From a virus (Duplodnaviria; Heunggongvirae; Uroviricota; Caudoviricetes): DNA of 14,938 nt. The notes beneath the pieces are model-generated. The model did no database searches, was not told the origin of the DNA, and saw only the letters and a list, made by a program, of their open reading frames with translations. Below, piece by piece: positions 708 to 13,561 of this stretch (its first letter is position 1; each line of letters begins with the position of its first letter). Both the position numbers and the translations under genes were made by a program. The stretch is from the IMG/VR virus record IMGVR_UViG_2690316148_000003. One strand, 5' to 3'.

Positions 708-3614
708 ATGAGTCCATCAGAACTTAGCGACCTGCTTTGGGCGCAGGTTGACAGGGTGGCTCCGCACCTGTTGCCAAACGGCAAGAAAGAGGGGCATGAG
801 TGGGTTGCCGGTAACGTCAACGGTGACAAGGGAAACAGCCTTAAGGTCAACCTTAGCGGTAAGAAAAAATGGGCTGATTTCGCTGAGGGAGACGGCGGTG
901 ACATGCTTGATTTGTGGATGGCATGTCGTGGAATTAACCTGCATCAGGCTATGCAGGAAGCGAAAGCATTTCTCGGTATCAAGGATGACGATCACCATTT
1001 CGATGCCAGACGTGAGAAGAAATTCTCCAGACCTGATCGCAAGAAAATCGCCCACTACGTTACCAGAACAGAATCCCATCTTGAGTACCTGCAATCGCGT
1101 GGCATATCGCCAGAAGTCGTAAAGCGCTACGAGGTTGTCAGCGGCAAGGTGTGGAATGGAGAACGAGAACTGGATGCTCTGGTGCTTCCGTACAAACGCG
1201 ATGGTGAGTTGTTGCAGGTCAAGCGAATCAGCACTGAGCGCCCGGACGGGAAGAAAGTCATTATGGCAGAAGGTGATTGCGAACCTTGCCTGTTCGGATG
1301 GCAGGCTCTGGACGCTGGCGTGAGGGCGGTTGTGCTTTGCGAAGGCGAAATTGATTGTATGAGCTATGCGCAATACGGCATCTCGGCGTTATCCGTGCCG
1401 TTTGGTGGCGGGAAAGGCGCTAAGCAACAGTGGATTGAGTTTGAGTATCACAACCTCGACAGGTTTGAGGAAATATTCATCTCGATGGACGTTGATGATG
1501 TTGGTCGTGAAGCCGCAAGGGAAATCGCAAGCCGACTCGGTGAACATCGTTGCCGTCTTGTTACTCTGCCGTACAAAGACATCAACGAATGCCTGATGAA
1601 CGGTGTTACCGAGGATGAAATCTGGCAGTACATCGGCACGGCATCCTACTTCGATCCTGAAGAACTCTACAGCGCGCGCGAGTTTTACCAGGACACTATC
1701 AACGCTTTCTACGGCAAGCAGCAGTATCTGTTTAATCCACCGTGGGAATCTCTGGCAGATAAATTCCAGTTCCGTGAGGCAGAGTTGACGCTGGTCAATG
1801 GTGTGAACGGTCACGGAAAGGCATGCCCACTGAATGAGCCTATTCTTTTAGCTGATGGGACATGGACTACTCACGGGAATGTAAAAATTGGCGATCAGGT
1901 GGCGTCAGTAGACGGCAATCCGTCAACTGTCACTGGGATATTCCCGCAGGGTGTTAGAGATGTTTACCGAGTCACATTTGAAGATGGTCGTTATGTTGAT
2001 TGCGCAGGCGATCACCTATGGGAGGTCACTAGTCGTGGATTCACGAAAGGCGAGAAACGCCGCGTGATAGATACCTTCGGGTTGAAGCGGTTGAGTGAAA
2101 CGAAGAGGCACAAAAATGGCGTTAGGATTCCTGAAATAACTGGTGACTTTGGCGACCACTCAGAGCCATTAGCATGGGTTATCGGCTCCCTTCTCGGGGA
2201 TGGTAGTCTTAGCAATGGGAGCGTGAAGTTTTCAAACGTCGAGCCATACATGATCGAGCGTATGAAGGCTGAACTGCCTGATTACAACTTCTCTGGAGAT
2301 GGTAAGGACTGGCTGATATCAACGGCGCGTGGTCAGGTAAATCCACTCATGGAGACCCTGCGAGGTTATGGACTAATGGGGTGCACAGCAAAAAACAAAT
2401 TCATCCCTCGTGTGTTTTTTTCCGCAAATAAATCAACGCGTATAGGCATGCTGTGTGGTCTGCTTGAAACGGATGGGTATGTCGAGAAGGATGGAACGCT
2501 TGTTTTTTCCTCAGCAAGTGAAAAACTGCGCAATGGGGTTGTTCAACTGGTTAACTCACTCGGCGGGTCATGCCGGACGCGAGTTAAAACTGGCGTGACA
2601 TACACATACAAGGACGATAAGCGGCATGGGATGGATTCATACGAGGCAAGAATCAGACTGACAAGAGAAATCAGGGAGGCCATCCGTTCACCACGACTCA
2701 ATGGCAGATTAACTGCGCATCGATTCGAGGGCTGTGGGGTATTCGTCAGGAATGTTGAAAAAATCGGCAATGCAGAATGCTTGTGTATTATGGTCGATCA
2801 CCCTCGCCACCTGTATGTAACCAGGGGATATGTGGCGACGCATAACACCGAGGTTGTCGGGCATATGGCACTTGAGGCAATGCGTCAGGGTGTGAAGACG
2901 TGCATCGCGTCACTTGAGCTGAAGCCTGGTATTCTCCTTAAGCGACTTACCCGTCAGGCAACGTGCTGCAAGATGCCGCCAGTGCTGGAAATTGACTCTG
3001 CATTTAAATTTTATGACGAAAGACTTTGGGTGTTTGGCCTGACCGGAACGGCGAAAGCCGACAGGCTGATCGAAATATTCGACTACGCTCGCCGCCGATA
3101 CGGCATCCAGTTATTCATTATCGACAGCCTGATGAAATGCGGCATAGGTGACGATGACTATAACGGGCAGAAAGCGTTTGTTGACTCGATTTGTGACTTC
3201 AAAAACAAAACAAACTCCCACGTCATTCTCGTTACTCACTCCAGAAAAGGAGACAGCGAAGAAAAACCAACCGGGAAAATGGACGTGAAAGGCTCTGGAG
3301 CGATAACAGACCTGACAGACAACCTTTTCATCATCTGGCGTAACAAGGCTCGCGAGAGAGCGTTACAGAGAGTTCAGAGTGGTGAAAAGATGTCAGAGAA
3401 GGACGAACAGCTACTGGCGTCTCCTGCATCTGTTTTGATGCTTGAAAAACAACGTAACGGCGAAGGCTGGGAAGGTGGTGTTCCGTTGTTCCTTGACGAG
3501 CAATCGCACCAGTTCCTGCAACTTGAATCAGGATCGCCATATAGCTACATCGCCAATATGCCGAAATCGGAATATGACGAGGCGTGGCGACAGGAAAACG
3601 TGACGGAGTATTAA
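708..3614 (+). CDS. Bifunctional DNA primase / SF4 (DnaB-like, T7 gp4-type) replicative helicase, interrupted by an intein
   Basis: 968-aa ORF. N-terminal region has Toprim-like acidic motifs (LCEGEIDCMSYA, ISMDVDDVGREA). C-terminal half resembles the T7 gp4 helicase domain: Walker A GVNGHGK...T, then IIDSLMKCG and VTHSRKG-type motifs. In-frame stop at 702-704 fixes the start at 708. Confidence 0.9.
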   Translation: MSPSELSDLLWAQVDRVAPHLLPNGKKEGHEWVAGNVNGDKGNSLKVNLSGKKKWADFAEGDGGDMLDLWMACRGINLHQAMQEAKAFLGIKDDDHHFDARREKKFSRPDRKKIAHYVTRTESHLEYLQSRGISPEVVKRYEVVSGKVWNGERELDALVLPYKRDGELLQVKRISTERPDGKKVIMAEGDCEPCLFGWQALDAGVRAVVLCEGEIDCMSYAQYGISALSVPFGGGKGAKQQWIEFEYHNLDRFEEIFISMDVDDVGREAAREIASRLGEHRCRLVTLPYKDINECLMNGVTEDEIWQYIGTASYFDPEELYSAREFYQDTINAFYGKQQYLFNPPWESLADKFQFREAELTLVNGVNGHGKACPLNEPILLADGTWTTHGNVKIGDQVASVDGNPSTVTGIFPQGVRDVYRVTFEDGRYVDCAGDHLWEVTSRGFTKGEKRRVIDTFGLKRLSETKRHKNGVRIPEITGDFGDHSEPLAWVIGSLLGDGSLSNGSVKFSNVEPYMIERMKAELPDYNFSGDGKDWLISTARGQVNPLMETLRGYGLMGCTAKNKFIPRVFFSANKSTRIGMLCGLLETDGYVEKDGTLVFSSASEKLRNGVVQLVNSLGGSCRTRVKTGVTYTYKDDKRHGMDSYEARIRLTREIREAIRSPRLNGRLTAHRFEGCGVFVRNVEKIGNAECLCIMVDHPRHLYVTRGYVATHNTEVVGHMALEAMRQGVKTCIASLELKPGILLKRLTRQATCCKMPPVLEIDSAFKFYDERLWVFGLTGTAKADRLIEIFDYARRRYGIQLFIIDSLMKCGIGDDDYNGQKAFVDSICDFKNKTNSHVILVTHSRKGDSEEKPTGKMDVKGSGAITDLTDNLFIIWRNKARERALQRVQSGEKMSEKDEQLLASPASVLMLEKQRNGEGWEGGVPLFLDEQSHQFLQLESGSPYSYIANMPKSEYDEAWRQENVTEY
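1821..2846 (+). mobile_element. Intein (Hint domain plus LAGLIDADG homing-endonuclease domain) inserted in the helicase Walker A motif
   Basis: Insert lies between GVNGHGK and TEVVGHMALEAM. It begins ACPLNEPILLADG (Ala codon 1821-1823, Cys codon 1824-1826) and ends YVATHN (Asn codon 2844-2846), followed by Thr at +1. Two LAGLIDADG-type motifs: LAWVIGSLLGDGSL (about 2169-2210) and IGMLCGLLETDGYV (about 2442-2483). Block-B-like GRYVDCAGDHLW and block-F-like ECLCIMVDHPRHLY. N-terminal boundary uncertain by one codon (1821 or 1824). Confidence 0.7.
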
Positions 3615-4324: not shown

Positions 4325-4621
4325 ATGAGCAAAGTATCACGAGGAATGAAAATATCGCTTATTTTCATCCTTAATCCGCATCGTATCTTTTTGGCTTCAG
4401 CAGTATGGCTGTCATATTTTGTTTATTGGTTAGCAGATAAATTGGATGATTTTGCGAAATGGCTTGAGAATTTTGCGAATGCGAGGTTTGAGTCATGGCC
4501 GCTTATCGGAGAGAAGATGTCTGACGAATTAAACCGGTATTACGCGGATAAGCGCAAGGAGAAGAGCAGGAGGGCAAGTGAAGCAATTATTCCTGCTTCG
4601 CAACGAAGCAATCAGAAATAA
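4325..4621 (+). CDS. Hypothetical protein with hydrophobic N-terminal segment (about 98 aa)
   Basis: AAGGAG at 4314-4319, 5 nt upstream of ATG 4325 (track ORF starts at GTG 4319). 3' end overlaps the ninB start by about 44 nt. Confidence 0.5.
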   Translation: MSKVSRGMKISLIFILNPHRIFLASAVWLSYFVYWLADKLDDFAKWLENFANARFESWPLIGEKMSDELNRYYADKRKEKSRRASEAIIPASQRSNQK

Positions 4622-5024
4622 CGCCATAGACGCCATTCTCTCACTACCCATCGACGACAAGTCACCCCACGAAGTCCACGTTAGAGAACCCAAACGCAGC
4701 AAAGCGCAGAATGACCGTATGTGGCCGATGCTGAACGATGTTTCGCGTCAGGTGCTATGGCATGGTCAACGGCTGGCGCCGGAAGACTGGAAAGACCTGT
4801 TCACTGCCCTGTGGCTTAAGACCAAAAAACTGGAGCAACGAAGTGCGCCTGGTATCGGCGGTGGCGTTGTCATGCTTGGCGTGCGTACCAGCAAAATGCG
4901 AAAGGCCAGCATGACTGAGCTTATCGAAATCATGTTCTGGTTCGGCTCAGAGCGCAACGTGCGGTGGAGTGATAACTCCCGGCGAGAGTATGAATGGTCA
5001 CAACGAACAGGGAGGGCGGCATGA
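4578..5024 (+). CDS. ninB: NinB (Orf-family recombination protein)
   Basis: 148-aa product resembles phage lambda NinB as recalled ([32 protein letters not shown]-terminal GRAA). GTG start at 4578. Confidence 0.85.
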
Positions 5025-5238: not shown

Positions 5239-5547
5239 TTAAACGAAGCGGATCTGGAGTTTTTTTCCAGTAGCGCGGGCGAATTTTTTTAGGGTGGCAA
5301 ATGATGGGCCGCTGATACCTGATGCGAGATTACTTTCCATTCTGGTGATCGCGGTCGCTTTTGTTCCCATTCGCTCGGCAACTTCAGCCTGAGTTAAGCC
5401 AGCTTCTTTGCGTGCTGCCAGCATTTCATCAAGCAGTGCGAATTCGTCAGCGATAGCGTCGTATTCTGCTTTAAAAGCCGGGTCTTCCATCCATTTGGCT
5501 GCCATTTCGTCGTGTGTCATGGTGGGGAGAGTGCGTTTACCAGTCAT
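5239..5547 (-). CDS. HTH (XRE-type) antitoxin / addiction-module antidote protein, HigA-like
   Basis: 102-aa product has a C-terminal HTH (GLTQAEVAERMGTKATAITRMES). Strong SD GAAGGAGG upstream on the minus strand. Overlaps the upstream toxin ORF by 11 nt. Confidence 0.8.
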   Translation of the reverse strand: MTGKRTLPTMTHDEMAAKWMEDPAFKAEYDAIADEFALLDEMLAARKEAGLTQAEVAERMGTKATAITRMESNLASGISGPSFATLKKFARATGKKLQIRFV

Positions 5548-5866
5548 GCTTAACCTCCTTCATTCTGGTTTCAGCTTTCTTGCGTTCGGCTGGCGGTGTT
5601 TTCTGCGTTTTCTTTACAAAACTATGCAGCATGATGATGCGTTTCCCTGTCAGAGTGCAGTAAAAAACACGCGCGATCCCATCGTTGCCTTTAATTCTGA
5701 GTTCGAAAAGTCCGTCACCAAAGGCGCTGGTGTGAGGTTCTCCGAGATTGCTGCCATATATCTTCATACGTTCAACGAGATGTTGGTATCGGGCACGCAT
5801 ACTCAATGGAAGCCGATCGACTTCCAGCCTTACATCTTCACTGTAGTATTCGATAGTGTAGTTCAT
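5537..5866 (-). CDS. RelE/ParE-superfamily toxin (Gp49-like / HigB-like addiction-module killer protein)
   Basis: About 110 aa from the internal Met (MNYTIEYYSEDVRLEVDRLP...RVFYCTLTGKRIIMLHSFVKKTQKTPPAERKKAE). Toxin-first gene order, as in HigB/HigA modules. Start uncertain: ATG at 5866 or 5878; the track's longer N-terminal extension is unlikely. Confidence 0.75.
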   Translation of the reverse strand: MNYTIEYYSEDVRLEVDRLPLSMRARYQHLVERMKIYGSNLGEPHTSAFGDGLFELRIKGNDGIARVFYCTLTGKRIIMLHSFVKKTQKTPPAERKKAETRMKEVKHDW

Positions 5867-5876
5867 AGGTATCAAC

Positions 5877-5892
5877 ATAACAAAATTGTTAT
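5877..5892. promoter_or_regulatory. Inverted repeat ATAACAA-AA-TTGTTAT at the toxin start; candidate operator for antitoxin autoregulation
   Basis: 7-bp perfect arms with 2-bp spacer, seen directly. It overlaps the alternative toxin start codon and a TATAAC -10-like hexamer on the minus strand. Confidence 0.4.
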
Positions 5893-6001
5893 ATGCATTC
5901 AAGGCCTGTAGTTGACGACAACACATATCCGGGGCTATATTCCTCACGCGCCAGCAAAATCTGGCGTCGGGATTGGAACCCCGGATATCGAAACGGTGCA
6001 T

Positions 6002-8326: not shown

Positions 8327-8511
8327 ACGCCACAATTCAAACGATACCAGAGCTTCTTATCCAGACACGAGGCAATCAGACCGAAGTGGCGAGGATGCTT
8401 TCCTGCGCAAGAGGAACAGTGCTCAAGTACAACCGAGACAGCAAAGGCGAGCGTCACGTAATAGTTAACGGCGTCCTGATGGTCAAACAGGGCAAGAGGG
8501 GAAGACGATGA
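8323..8511 (+). CDS. ninH: NinH-like protein
   Basis: 62 aa. GNQTEVARMLSCARGTVLKY...VIVNGVLMV resembles lambda NinH. Located immediately upstream of Q, as in lambda. Confidence 0.65.
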   Translation: MNATIQTIPELLIQTRGNQTEVARMLSCARGTVLKYNRDSKGERHVIVNGVLMVKQGKRGRR

Positions 8512-9131
8512 GACTCGAAAGCGTAGCTAAATTTCATTCGCCAAAAAGCCCGATGATGAGCGACTCACCACGGGCTACGGCTTCTGACTCTCTTTCCGGT
8601 ACTGATGTGATGGCTGCTATGGGGATGGCGCAATCACAAGCCGGATTCGGAATGGCTGCATTTTGCGGTAAGCATGAACTCAGCCAGAACGACAAACAAA
8701 AGGCTATCAACTATCTGATGCAATTTGCACACAAGGTATCGGGGAAATACCGTGGTGTGGCAAAGCTCGAAGGAAATACTAAGGCAAAGGTACTGCAAGT
8801 GCTCGCAACATTCGCTTATGCGGATTATTGCCGTAGTGCCGCGACGCCGGGCGCAAGATGCAGAGATTGCCACGGAACAGGTCTGGCAGTTGATATAGCC
8901 AAAACAGAGCAGTGGGGGAGAGTTGTCGAGAAAGAGTGCGGAAGATGCAAAGGTGTCGGCTATTCAAGGATGCCAGCAAGTGCAGCATATCGCGCTGTAA
9001 CGATGCTAATCCCAAACCTCACCCAACCCACATGGTCACGCACTGTTAAGCCGCTGTATGACGCTCTGGTGGTGCAATGCCACAAAGAAGAGTCAATCGC
9101 AGACAACATTTTGAATGCGGTCACACGTTAG
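8508..9131 (+). CDS. Q: Late-gene antiterminator Q (lambda-type)
   Basis: 207-aa product appears essentially identical to phage lambda Q as recalled (MRLESVAKFHSPKSPMMSDSPRATASDSLSG...CRDCHGTG...CGRCKGVGYSRMP...NAVTR). Confidence 0.9.
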   Translation: MRLESVAKFHSPKSPMMSDSPRATASDSLSGTDVMAAMGMAQSQAGFGMAAFCGKHELSQNDKQKAINYLMQFAHKVSGKYRGVAKLEGNTKAKVLQVLATFAYADYCRSAATPGARCRDCHGTGLAVDIAKTEQWGRVVEKECGRCKGVGYSRMPASAAYRAVTMLIPNLTQPTWSRTVKPLYDALVVQCHKEESIADNILNAVTR

Positions 9132-9391: not shown

Positions 9392-9466
9392 GGGTCAGTC
9401 GTATAAAGGTCATTACGGAAGGCTGTTAACCTTCTTATCGTTGTTCGAGTCCACGCTGTCCCGCCA
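9392..9466 (+). tRNA. tRNA-like gene, anticodon GUU (Asn), with mismatches in acceptor, D and T stems; possibly degenerate
   Basis: Hand-folded cloverleaf: acceptor GGGTCAG/CTGTCCC (one T-T mismatch), perfect anticodon stem GAAGG/CCTTC with loop CTGTTAA, T-loop TTCGAGT, discriminator G, encoded CCA. Confidence 0.45.
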
Positions 9467-9471
9467 AATAT

Positions 9472-9547
9472 GCTGGTTTAGCTCTAATGGTAGAGCAGTC
9501 GCCTTGTAAGCGAATGGGTAGCGGTTCAAGTCCGTTAACCAGCACCA
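9472..9547 (+). tRNA. tRNA, anticodon UGU (Thr)
   Basis: Hand-folded cloverleaf: perfect 7-bp acceptor stem GCTGGTT/AACCAGC, D-stem GCTC/GAGC, anticodon loop CTTGTAA, T-arm AGCGG-TTCAAGT-CCGTT, discriminator A, encoded CCA. 76 nt. Confidence 0.75.
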
Positions 9548-9663
9548 TAACTGAGCCGTAGCCACTGGCTATCCTGAATTCATCAGTGACAGTTACGCTG
9601 CGGCCTTCTTTTCCCCTTCCCAATATAAGAACTACGCCATCCGTTATTTGCGGAGGTGAGGCT

Positions 9664-9879
9664 ATGAAATCCATGGACAAAATTTCAACGGGCATTGCCT
9701 ACGGCACCTCCGCCGGCAGTGCCGGCTACTGGTTTTTGCAGTGGTTGGATCAGGTCAGTCCGTCACAGTGGGCTGCGATTGGTGTGCTGGGAAGTCTGCT
9801 TCTGGGGCTTCTGACTTATCTGACAAATCTGTATTTCAAAATAAGAGAAGATAAGCGTAAGGCTGCGAGAGGTGAATAA
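9664..9879 (+). CDS. S: Class II holin (phage 21 S-type pinholin) with dual start
   Basis: [30 protein letters not shown]...[15 protein letters not shown] closely matches phage 21 S holin as recalled. Two in-frame starts (Met1 and Met4). RBS GGAGGTGAGG upstream; the track ORF begins further upstream at 9586. Confidence 0.85.
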
Positions 9880-10376
9880 TGTCGCCATCATTACGCAAGG
9901 CTGTTGCAGTTGCTATTGGTGGCGGGGCTGTTGCTATAGCATCTGTGTTAATCACTGGCCCAGGTGGTAACGATGGTCTGGAAGGTGTCAGCTACATACC
10001 ATACAAAGATATCATTGGTGTATGGACTGTATGTCACGGACACACCGGAAAAGACATCATGCCTGGTAAAACGTATACCGAAGCAGAATGCAAAGCTCTC
10101 CTGAATAAAGACCTTGCCACTGTCGCCAGACAAATTAACCCGTACATCAAAGTCGATATACCGGAAACAACGCGCGGCGCTCTTTACTCGTTCGTTTACA
10201 ACGTGGGCGCTGGCAATTTCAGAACATCGACGCTTCTTCGCAAAATAAACCAGGGCGATATCAAAGGCGCATGTGACCAGCTACGTCGCTGGACATATGC
10301 TGGCGGTAAGCAATGGAAAGGGCTGATGACCCGTCGTGAGATTGAGCGTGAAGTCTGTTTGTGGGGGCAGCAATGA
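9879..10376 (+). CDS. R: SAR endolysin (phage 21 R-type lysozyme with N-terminal signal-anchor-release domain)
   Basis: 165 aa. Gly/Ala-rich N-terminal hydrophobic segment ([20 protein letters not shown]) followed by a lysozyme-like body; matches phage 21 R as recalled. Start overlaps the holin stop. Confidence 0.85.
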
Positions 10377-10864: not shown

Positions 10865-11215
10865 ATGCCATCACTAATCCCACGTGCCTGCCGTAAGCGT
10901 GGATGTGCAGGTACAACCACAGACAGTTCGGGTTACTGCGATAAACATCGCGGTGAAGGCTGGGTGCAGCACCAGCGCGGACTGAGCCGCCACCAGCGTG
11001 GCTATGGCTCAAAATGGACGGTGATTCGTGCCCGTATTCTGAAGCGCGATAAAGGTCTGTGTCAGTTGTGTCTGCGTGTCGGTGTGGTGAGCGAGGCGAA
11101 AACCGTCGACCACATCATCCCGAAAGCGCATGGCGGAACAGACGCAGACAGCAACCTGCAGAGTCTGTGCTGGCCCTGCCATAAAGCGAAAACAGCGCGC
11201 GAACGAATCCGGTGA
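10865..11215 (+). CDS. HNH endonuclease (packaging-associated, HK97 gp74-like)
   Basis: 116 aa with Cys pairs and an HNH motif (VDHIIPKAHGG...NLQSLCWPCHKAKT). Positioned directly upstream of the small terminase. Confidence 0.85.
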   Translation: MPSLIPRACRKRGCAGTTTDSSGYCDKHRGEGWVQHQRGLSRHQRGYGSKWTVIRARILKRDKGLCQLCLRVGVVSEAKTVDHIIPKAHGGTDADSNLQSLCWPCHKAKTARERIR

Positions 11216-11300: not shown

Positions 11301-11336
11301 CCCGCGAAAAATGAAATTTAACCAGGAGTGCCGCAT

Positions 11337-11831
11337 ATGGCTGGAACGGCGGGGCGTTCCGGGCGTCGCCCCAAGCCAACGGCGCGCAAGGCGCTGGCCG
11401 GAAACCCCGGCAAGCGAGCCCTGAACAAAGATGAACCTGTTTTTACGCCCATCAAAGGTGTTGAGCCACCAGAGTGGTTCGCTGAAGAAGATCTCCCTCT
11501 CGCCACGATCATGTGGCAACTGACAACCAAAGAACTCTGCGGTCAGGGCCTGCTGTGCGTGACTGACCTGGCGGTACTTGAGCGGTGGTGCGTGGCCTAT
11601 GAGTTCTGGCGACGTGCCGTGAAAAATATTGCCATACAGGGCAACACCATCACCGGTGCAATGGGCGGCAGGGTCAAAAATCCGGAGCTGACCGCCAAAA
11701 AAGAACAGGAGTCCGAGATGAGCAGCACGGGGGCAATGCTCGGACTCGACCCCAGCAGCCGCCAGCGTCTGATTGGCCTGGCGGGGCAGAAGAAAGCCAC
11801 TAACCCGTTTCTGAAAATTATCGAATCATGA
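11337..11831 (+). CDS. Terminase small subunit (P27 family)
   Basis: AGGAG at 11323-11327, 9 nt before ATG 11337 (track ORF starts at GTG 11328). Basic N-terminus [14 protein letters not shown] typical of P27-family TerS. Stop overlaps the terL start. Confidence 0.8.
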
Positions 11832-13561
11832 GCCGGAAATCTTACCCCAACGTAAATGCTGCAAATCAGTATGCCCGGGATGTCGTGCGCGGAAAGATTG
11901 TTGCCTGCCAGTTTGTGATTCAGGCCTGCCAGCGCCATCTTGATGACCTGATGGCGGAAAAAAGTAAGTCGTTTCGTTACCGCTTCGACAAGGACCTGGC
12001 TGAACGGGCCGCGAAATTTATTCAGCTGTTGCCGCACACCAAGGGGGAGTGGGCATTCAAACGGATGCCCATCACGCTGGAGCCGTGGCAGCTATTTGTG
12101 ATCTGCTGTGCGTTTGGCTGGGTCAATAAAGGCACCCGGTTGCGCCGCTTCCGGGAGGTGTACACCGAAATCCCCCGTAAGAACGGCAAATCAGCAATCT
12201 CTGCCGGTGTTGCCCTGTATTGTTTTGCCTGTGATAACGAGTTTGGCGCGGAAGTGTATTCCGGTGCCACGACAGAGAAACAGGCGTGGGAAGTCTTTCG
12301 CCCGGCGCGACTGATGTGTAAACGCACACCCATGCTGACGGAAGCGTTCGGGATTGAGGTTAACGCCTCAAACATGAACCGTCCGGAGGATGGCGCGCGG
12401 TTTGAACCGCTGATCGGCAACCCAGGTGATGGTTCATCACCCCACTGTGCCGTGGTTGATGAATATCACGAGCATGCCACCGATGCGCTTTATACCACAA
12501 TGCTTACCGGGATGGGGGCGCGACGTCAGCCACTGATGTGGGCCATCACCACCGCCGGGTACAACATTGAGGGGCCGTGCTACGACAAGCGGCGGGAAGT
12601 CATCGAGATGCTCAACGGCTCGGTGCCTAACGATGAACTGTTCGGGATCATCTATACCGTTGATGAAGGTGACGACTGGACCGGCCCGCAGGTGCTGGAA
12701 AAAGCCAATCCAAATATTGGCGTGTCGGTTTATCGCGAATTTTTGTTAAGTCAGCAGCAGCGTGCGAAAAATAACGCCCGTCTGGCAAACGTCTTTAAAA
12801 CAAAACACCTCAATATCTGGGTGTCGGCGCGTTCGGCGTATTTCAACCTGGTGAGCTGGCAGAGCTGCGAGGATAAATCACTGACCCTTGAGCAGTTCGA
12901 GGGGCAGCCGTGCATTCTGGCCTTTGACCTGGCGCGTAAGCTGGATATGAACAGCATGGCGCGACTTTATACCCGCGAGATTGACGGTAAAACGCATTAC
13001 TACAGTGTGGCCCCGCGTTTCTGGGTACCGTATGACACGGTGTACAGCGTCGAGAAAAATGAAGATCGACGGACAGCCGAACGCTTTCAGAAATGGGTGG
13101 AAATGGGCGTTCTGACCGTTACCGATGGTGCGGAGGTGGATTATCGCTACATCCTCGAGGAGGCCAAAGCGGCGAACAAAATCAGCCCGGTCAGTGAGTC
13201 ACCCATCGACCCCTTCGGGGCGACCGGGTTGTCACATGACCTTGCTGATGAAGACCTGAATCCCGTCACTATCGTCCAGAACTTCACCAATATGTCCGAT
13301 CCGATGAAAGAGCTGGAAGCAGCGATTGAATCGGGACGTTTTCATCATGACGGCAATCCCATCATGACCTGGTGTATCGGCAACGTGGTCGGCAAAAACA
13401 TGCCGGGTAACGATGATGTGGTGAAACCCGTCAAAGAGCAGGCGGAAAACAAAATCGATGGTGCAGTTGCGCTGATTATGGCGGTTGGCAGAGCCATGCT
13501 GTACGAGAAAGAAGACACGCTGTCTGACCACATTGAGTCCTACGGGATCCGCTCGCTTTAA
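11828..13561 (+). CDS. Terminase large subunit
   Basis: 577-aa ORF in the expected position, with ATPase-like motifs ([18 protein letters not shown]) and a C-terminal nuclease-like region. Confidence 0.9.

Follow-up and report, generated by a model that had tools for sequence, protein, structure and literature searches.

The interrupted primase-helicase gene

The 14,938-nucleotide (nt) stretch examined here (IMG/VR record IMGVR_UViG_2690316148_000003; hereafter the window, meaning the whole stretch) is, from annotation and comparison of its genes, a segment of a lambdoid prophage. The feature of interest is a 968-codon open reading frame (ORF) at 708..3614 on the plus strand, the strand on which all features of this gene lie, which specifies a Toprim primase joined to a gp4/DnaB-like helicase, the lambdoid prophage "P" replication protein. 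Pfam places a Toprim domain at precursor residues 209-296 (Toprim_2, E=8e-12) and a weak match to a P-loop ATPase (AAA_25) near the C-terminus; LAGLIDADG_3 (E=4e-7; 30.6 bits against a cut-off of 22.5), Hom_end_hint (E=5e-5) and Hom_end fall between the two. The gene exhibits 98.5% nt identity to the P replication/primase-helicase gene of the Shiga toxin-converting (Stx) phages Min27, phi24B and others. We consider, with a probability of roughly 0.88, that it is interrupted by a mobile intein of class 3 which carries a LAGLIDADG homing endonuclease within it and is lodged between the Walker A Lys and Thr of the primase-helicase (GVNGHGK/T, where the slash marks the site of insertion).

The limits of this element are revealed by alleles which do not possess it. 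In the phage collection and the complete Escherichia coli genomes such alleles match at 97.5-98.8% nt identity over approximately 64% of the query; what is missing from them is an in-frame stretch of exactly 1026 nt, the alleles being otherwise collinear and approximately 98.5% identical. The missing stretch, 1821..2846, encodes 342 amino acid residues from Ala1 to Asn342 and contains the HINT and LAGLIDADG matches. The intein-less Sf101 protein, which reads LVNGVNGHGKTEVVGHMALEAM, has 626 residues against 968 here, a difference of exactly 342, and global alignment of the two is collinear throughout apart from the insert. By this comparison the N-extein comprises Met1-Lys371 (708..1820) and terminates in GVNGHGK (1800..1820), the first part of Walker A, while the C-extein (2847..3614) runs from TEVVG to the stop codon, its first residue being the Walker A Thr. 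Translation of the ORF gives GVNGHGK-A-C-PLNEP at the N-terminal junction and VATHN-TEVVG at the C-terminal junction, with Ala1 at 1821-1823, Cys2 at 1824-1826, the terminal Asn342 at 2844-2846 and Thr+1 at 2847-2849.

Five intein-less alleles were read at the junction: Sf101, three E. coli prophages, and the 87%-identical Salmonella phage epsilon34. All encode GVNGHGK/TEVVG and none encodes GKAT. Ala is therefore intein residue 1 and the Cys at 1824 is residue 2, because excision from Cys to Asn would leave GKAT, and only excision from Ala to Asn regenerates the intein-less protein. An earlier sequence-only reading of this DNA had proposed that the true start lies one codon before the Cys, at the Ala (1821), and that splicing from there restores a canonical Walker A whereas a Cys start would leave GKAT; the intein-less alleles, exactly 342 codons shorter and encoding GK/T, bear this out. 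The strings on which that reading relied (GVNGHGK-A-C, GRYVDCAGDHLW, ECLCIMVDH and VATHN-T) all occur in the frame of the ORF, and its positions for Ala and Cys are correct. The insert does lie inside the span it gave, 1812-2852; the exact limits are narrower, 1821..2846, followed by Thr+1.

The frame of the insert is not fixed by the DNA alone, as a placement one base away leaves the mismatch count unchanged (2); it is at the protein level that Ala to Asn becomes the only solution. The intein-less junction DNA (Sf101, mEp043) reads GGTCACGGAAAA/ACGGAGGTTGTC. Four intein-containing alleles (the window, Min27, FDAARGOS_943 and ATCC 35150) and the five intein-less ones differ consistently in their flanks solely in the third bases of the junction codons (1818-1820 and 2847-2849), which read AAG...ACC with the intein and AAA/ACG without it. 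Both changes are synonymous, and the rest of the 240-nt flanks holds no further fixed difference between the two sets. One possibility is co-conversion over a very short tract; another is a change that protects from the intein's own endonuclease. A further intein-less allele, that of E. coli HH97, is annotated as frameshifted. On the allele comparison the extent of the intein is Ala1 to Asn342 (1821..2846), and the predicted mature helicase has an intact GVNGHGKT P-loop; both the boundary and the mature sequence should be of use in naming and modeling the replication protein of lambdoid and Stx-type phages.

Splicing motifs and endonuclease domain

The insert contains splicing blocks A, B, F and G and ends in His-Asn followed by Thr, as is characteristic of inteins. 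Block A, ACPLNEPILLADG (1821..1859), includes Ala1 and the non-conserved Cys2. Block B, GRYVDCAGDHLWEV (1986..2027), supplies Ala62 at B:7, His65 at B:10 (2013-2015) and, two residues beyond the His, Trp67 at B:12 (2019-2021); the string GRYVDCAGDHLW corresponds to intein residues 56-67. Block F, ECLCIMVDHPRHLYV (2775..2819), contains ECLCIMVDH (residues 319-327), with Cys320 at F:2 and, at F:4, Cys322 (2784-2786), the proposed class 3 nucleophile. Block G, GYVATHN/T (2826..2849), consists of Thr340 at G:5 (2838-2840), His341 at G:6 and Asn342 at G:7, with Thr+1 completing the junction.

Class 3 inteins, defined in 2010, are characterized by a residue 1 that is not a nucleophile, by the Trp/Cys/Thr triplet and by a +1 residue that is Thr or Ser (Tori et al. 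2010, PMC2807308; also PMC3196547); the class is reported to be monophyletic. The window intein has a non-nucleophilic Ala1, Trp67 at B:12, Cys322 at F:4, Thr340 at G:5 and Thr+1. Ala1 is unable to act as a nucleophile, and alignment shows His65, Trp67, Cys322, Thr340, His341, Asn342 and Thr+1 at class 3 positions. The sequence-only reading had recognized the same signature (Trp in block B, Cys in block F, Thr before His-Asn) and the missing residue-1 nucleophile, and the latter is now supported by the intein-less alleles and by the register of block A.

That register is gap-free, with Ala as residue 1, against PI-SceI, the Mycobacterium smegmatis DnaB intein (6BS8) and the mycobacteriophage Bethlehem intein (Pro1). 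The PI-SceI chain begins at its nucleophilic Cys1, and Ile8 of the query pairs with Val8 of PI-SceI; residues 4-69 align to residues 4-69 of 6BS8. Among solved protein chains the best phmmer matches, obtained with a mini-intein query, are to DnaB inteins: 6RIX and 6RIY from M. chimaera (E=6e-11) and 6BS8 (E=8e-8), all of which are class 3 (PMC7664689). In all three matches the four key residues (His, Trp, Cys and Thr) pair up; Trp67 also pairs with the Trp of the Bethlehem intein, and Cys322 with the block F Cys in 6RIX, in 6BS8 and in Bethlehem (Cys320). The three top scores, 45.8, 44.1 and 35.5 bits, all belong to class 3 inteins, against 27.7 bits for the native class 1 gp41-1 intein; these are similarity scores and not a tree. 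Taken together, the signature and the similarity to characterized members support assignment of the insert to class 3. The Pfam and phmmer E-values, with the loss of precisely 1026 nt from the intein-less alleles, put the insert well outside what chance would give.

Relatives of the intein were found by tblastn in 603 records of the phage collection, mainly in helicases, DarB-like proteins and terminases, while a protein homology search with the intein returned only five proteins at E<=1e-10. In a ten-sequence alignment H65, W67, C322, T340, H341 and N342 are invariant. This alignment was then extended with 80 IMG/VR loci found with it to give a survey of 90 sequences, which were recruited by similarity to the window intein and so represent one family rather than a random sample. 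His is found at B:10 in 90/90, Trp at B:12 in 89/90, Cys at F:4 in 89/90 and Thr at G:5 in 89/89; at position +1 there are 76 Thr and 13 Ser (n=90). Upstream of the junction, position -2 is Gly in 81/90 and position -1 Lys in 80/90. Residue 1, the assignment of which relies here on automatic alignment, is Ala in 58, Glu in 10, Ser in seven, Gly in four, Pro in two and Cys in a single case (n=90), and residue 2 is Gln in 56, Leu in 17 and Cys in only four (n=90). Two IMG/VR loci depart from the pattern, L092 with Thr at F:4 and a C-terminus of TQ/S rather than HN, and L090 with Asn in place of Trp at B:12; these may be decayed inteins or alignment artifacts.

By analogy with characterized class 3 inteins (PMC2807308; PMC3196547; PMC7664689), splicing would commence with attack of the Cys322 (F:4) thiol, assisted by His65, Trp67 and Thr340, upon the Lys371-Ala1 bond, giving a block F branched thioester which carries the N-extein. 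The N-extein would then pass to the hydroxyl of Thr+1, Asn342 would cyclize to release the intein, and an O-to-N acyl shift would leave the P-loop whole, GVNGHGKTEVVG, and the helicase active. Since the insert splits Walker A, helicase function should depend upon splicing; and since the isolated phages phi24B and Min27 nevertheless have this same allele as their replication gene, splicing is expected to be efficient. Kelley et al. (2016; PMC5050341) call the gap between a P-loop's invariant Lys and its Thr the "classic" intein site. A class 3 intein at this site fits the proposed phage origin of the class.

Between the splicing blocks lie two LAGLIDADG motifs, each with an acidic residue, as in intein-embedded homing endonucleases. 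The first, LAWVIGSLLGDGSL (2169..2210), contains Asp127 within LLGDGS and falls within the Pfam LAGLIDADG_3 and Hom_end matches; the second, RIGMLCGLLETDGYV (2439..2483), contains Asp218 within LLETDG and was likewise located by Pfam. Both align with PI-SceI. In the ten-sequence alignment G126-D127-G128 are invariant or nearly so, D218 is nearly invariant and G219 is invariant; thus both aspartates are essentially conserved. The intein is present in 79 of the 296 complete E. coli genomes which have the gene, and phage records are likewise divided between the two forms. Presence or absence at one site in near-identical alleles fits a homing element without proving activity. The endonuclease domain presumably cleaves intein-less alleles at the P-loop codons, after which recombination would spread the intein among lambdoid phages, and spread of this kind would explain its patchy occurrence.

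Alternatives to a functional class 3 intein

One alternative is that the intein has decayed within a defective prophage and no longer splices, leaving the interrupted helicase non-functional. There is precedent in the inactive Arthrobacter Arth_1007 intein, which retains most of the class 3 signature (PMC3196547), and damaged alleles of the gene do exist, namely the frameshifted HH97 copy, the Min27 record with its two coding sequences (CDSs), and truncated copies in Shigella flexneri. The Arthrobacter intein, however, is without the F:4 Cys and the B:10 His, both of which the window intein has. The 968-codon ORF is intact with all catalytic positions kept, and the same allele occurs in the isolated phages phi24B and Min27 and in 79 complete E. 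coli genomes. We regard decay as improbable.

A second concerns the Cys that adjoins the Lys371-Ala1 bond. It might be more than a passenger, forming a redox-sensing disulfide with Cys322 or serving as a minor alternative nucleophile which produces some mis-spliced GKAT. Cys2 and the catalytic Cys322 are near each other in sequence-space, and Cys320 and Cys61 also lie in their vicinity. If this were so, a reversible Cys2-Cys322 disulfide would render splicing, and hence phage replication, redox-sensitive. We give the idea little credence. The Cys is rare at residue 2 among the relatives and is replaced by Met in the closest paralogue, so that the residue which invites a class 1 reading is a lineage-specific one; in the favored explanation Cys2 is a passenger and not the nucleophile. 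As a separate observation, additional cysteines cluster about the active site in this family: here Cys61 (B:6; 2001-2003), Cys320 (F:2; 2778-2780) and Cys2 accompany Cys322 (2784-2786), and cysteines are found in the relatives at B:7 in 39/90 and at F:2 in 32/90.

Were the element instead a standard class 1 intein of 341 residues, it would start at the Cys (1824), splice by way of an N-S acyl shift and leave the Ala behind to give GHGKATEVVG. A Cys does stand within one residue of the junction, the C-terminus is an ordinary His-Asn/Thr, and a small number of inteins bearing the Trp/Cys/Thr signature start with Cys or Ser (PMC2807308), as does Spud gp208, a relative with the triplet. Yet GK/T without Ala is found in all five intein-less alleles read, and the added Ala would displace the Walker A Thr. 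Against PI-SceI, 6BS8 and the Bethlehem intein, block A would have to be read with one residue deleted, and at the position of this Cys just 4/90 relatives have Cys and the closest paralogue has Met. Furthermore, the B:7 Thr of class 1 is missing (Ala62), F:4 is Cys rather than the usual Asp, and residue 1, being Ala, is not the Cys, Ser or Thr of that class. This explanation is very hard to sustain. The same is true of a KlbA-type class 2 intein, with direct attack on the N-terminal junction by Thr+1 and no covalent part for Cys322: inteins of class 2 also begin with Ala1 (PMC2807308), but the class is defined by the missing Trp/Cys/Thr triplet and found only in archaeal KlbA (PMC3196547), while here the triplet is complete, it is nearly invariant in the relatives, and the closest characterized relatives are class 3.

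Several points weigh against a mobile class 3 intein as described above. The class assignment depends upon a sequence signature and likeness to characterized members. The activity of the endonuclease and its homing site are predicted from its motifs and distribution. The four intein-containing alleles differ at seven nt, four of which alter an amino acid, too few to show purifying selection. Finally, a Cys right beside the scissile bond is unusual, and it may conceivably take part in splicing.

Prophage setting and known relatives

The window begins with the end of a replication initiator gene, followed by the intein-bearing primase-helicase gene, NinB, and a minus-strand pair resembling a toxin-antitoxin system. 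Thereafter come two antirepressor genes, RusA, a Q-like antiterminator, genes for tRNA-Asn and tRNA-Thr, the lysis genes, an HNH endonuclease, the small and large terminase genes, and a 385-residue ORF which is likely the portal gene. The closest match, at 99.2%, is the prophage of E. coli FDAARGOS_943. Its ninB, downstream of the intein-containing gene, is split by IS600, unlike that of the window, which is intact (4578-5024). The putative toxin-antitoxin pair lies in the nin region on the minus strand (5239-6001), where a gene for a helix-turn-helix (HTH) regulator (5239-5547) overlaps an upstream 154-residue ORF (5537-6001); in FDAARGOS_943 the homologues of the two carry the annotations RelE/ParE-family toxin and HTH protein.

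The tRNA-Asn(GTT) and tRNA-Thr(TGT) genes (9392-9466 and 9472-9547) are situated between the Q-like antiterminator gene (8508-9131) and the holin/lysozyme genes (9586-10376). This is the position at which Stx phages have tRNAs followed by stx; no stx genes are present in the window. The HNH endonuclease gene (10865-11215) directly precedes those for the small and large terminase (11328-13561), as is typical of HNH-dependent cos packaging.

Neither the window intein, on its sequence, nor its class is new: both have been described before. The phi24B (vB_EcoP_24B)/Min27 P intein occupies the same site in the same gene, is 98-99% identical, and the inteins differ by one to four amino acids. Smith et al. 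(2012; PMC3430580) place the start of the phi24B intein at residue 372, which is Ala here, and its end at residue 702; comparison with the intein-less allele places the end at 713. The window copy resides in a different lambdoid prophage backbone from that of phi24B and Min27, one without stx in the window. In the Min27 record (NC_010237) the gene appears as two overlapping CDSs, "P" and "DNA primase," which points to a frameshift, or to an error in sequencing, close to the 3′-end. InBase probably lists an "EP-Min27 Primase" intein.

A truncated, partial Shigella flexneri protein of 203 residues is 100% identical to the intein over residues ~35-237. InBase has entries for related primase inteins of S. 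flexneri prophages. Inteins of Shigella prophage primases without an N-terminal nucleophile are mentioned by Tori et al. (2010; PMC2807308), including partial "ShP-Sfv-2a ... Primase" inteins which end before block F, and the truncated protein probably corresponds to these. The window element is accordingly best viewed as a textbook example, clearly polymorphic among near-identical alleles, which raises no new question.

The sequence-only reading had compared the element with the intein of mycobacteriophage Bethlehem, which it called a DnaB intein. The likeness in signature holds, with the same register and numbering; the location does not, as the Bethlehem intein resides in the large terminase gene, at site TerL1-c and not at a P-loop Lys/Thr (PMC5050341). 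In the GenBank record it is found in gp11, the large terminase, as PLALNTEV...ILTHN/T; the DnaB-like gp62 of the right arm was also considered as its location and gave no match. Numbered from Pro1, its S62, H65, W67, C320, T339, H340 and N341 carry the residue numbers used by Tori et al. (2010; PMC2807308). The two inteins are 26% identical (pairwise tblastn, E=3e-20) and similar in length (341 residues in Bethlehem, 342 here); H65 and W67 bear the same numbers, and both possess the F:4 Cys, the G:5 Thr, HN/T, a LAGLIDADG domain and a non-nucleophilic residue 1. They differ in that residue 1 is Pro in Bethlehem and Ala here, and residue 62 is Ser there and Ala here. The mechanism of the Bethlehem intein, the class 3 prototype, was shown experimentally (PMC2807308), whereas the window intein is known from sequence.

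The mycobacterial DnaB intein 1 (6BS8 and 6RIX/6RIY) likewise interrupts the P-loop of a replicative helicase after GK and has its His, Trp, Cys and Thr at matching positions. These are mini-inteins of 139-146 residues without an endonuclease domain, in chromosomal dnaB; the window intein is in a phage primase-helicase.

The closest paralogue, 50% identical over its whole length, is found in Stx2a phages such as TL-2011a, in a helicase of DnaB type. It reads ARPGMGK/AMALSE...ECLCIMVSHPSHLYVTTDYIVTHN/TELAL, and thus shares with the window intein Ala1, Thr+1 and the GK/T insertion, as well as the Trp/Cys/Thr signature and the LAGLIDADG domain. In the locus extracted from Escherichia phage TL-2011a it occupies 1501-2517, and 49 records of Stx2a-converting phages have it. 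Its residue 2 is Met and not Cys, and its host helicase is unrelated, being of DnaB type without a Toprim domain. A metagenomic DnaB likewise has Ala1 and Met2. The occurrence of the Stx2a-phage intein at the same GK/T site means that one intein lineage has colonized two helicase families within the lambdoid phages of E. coli.

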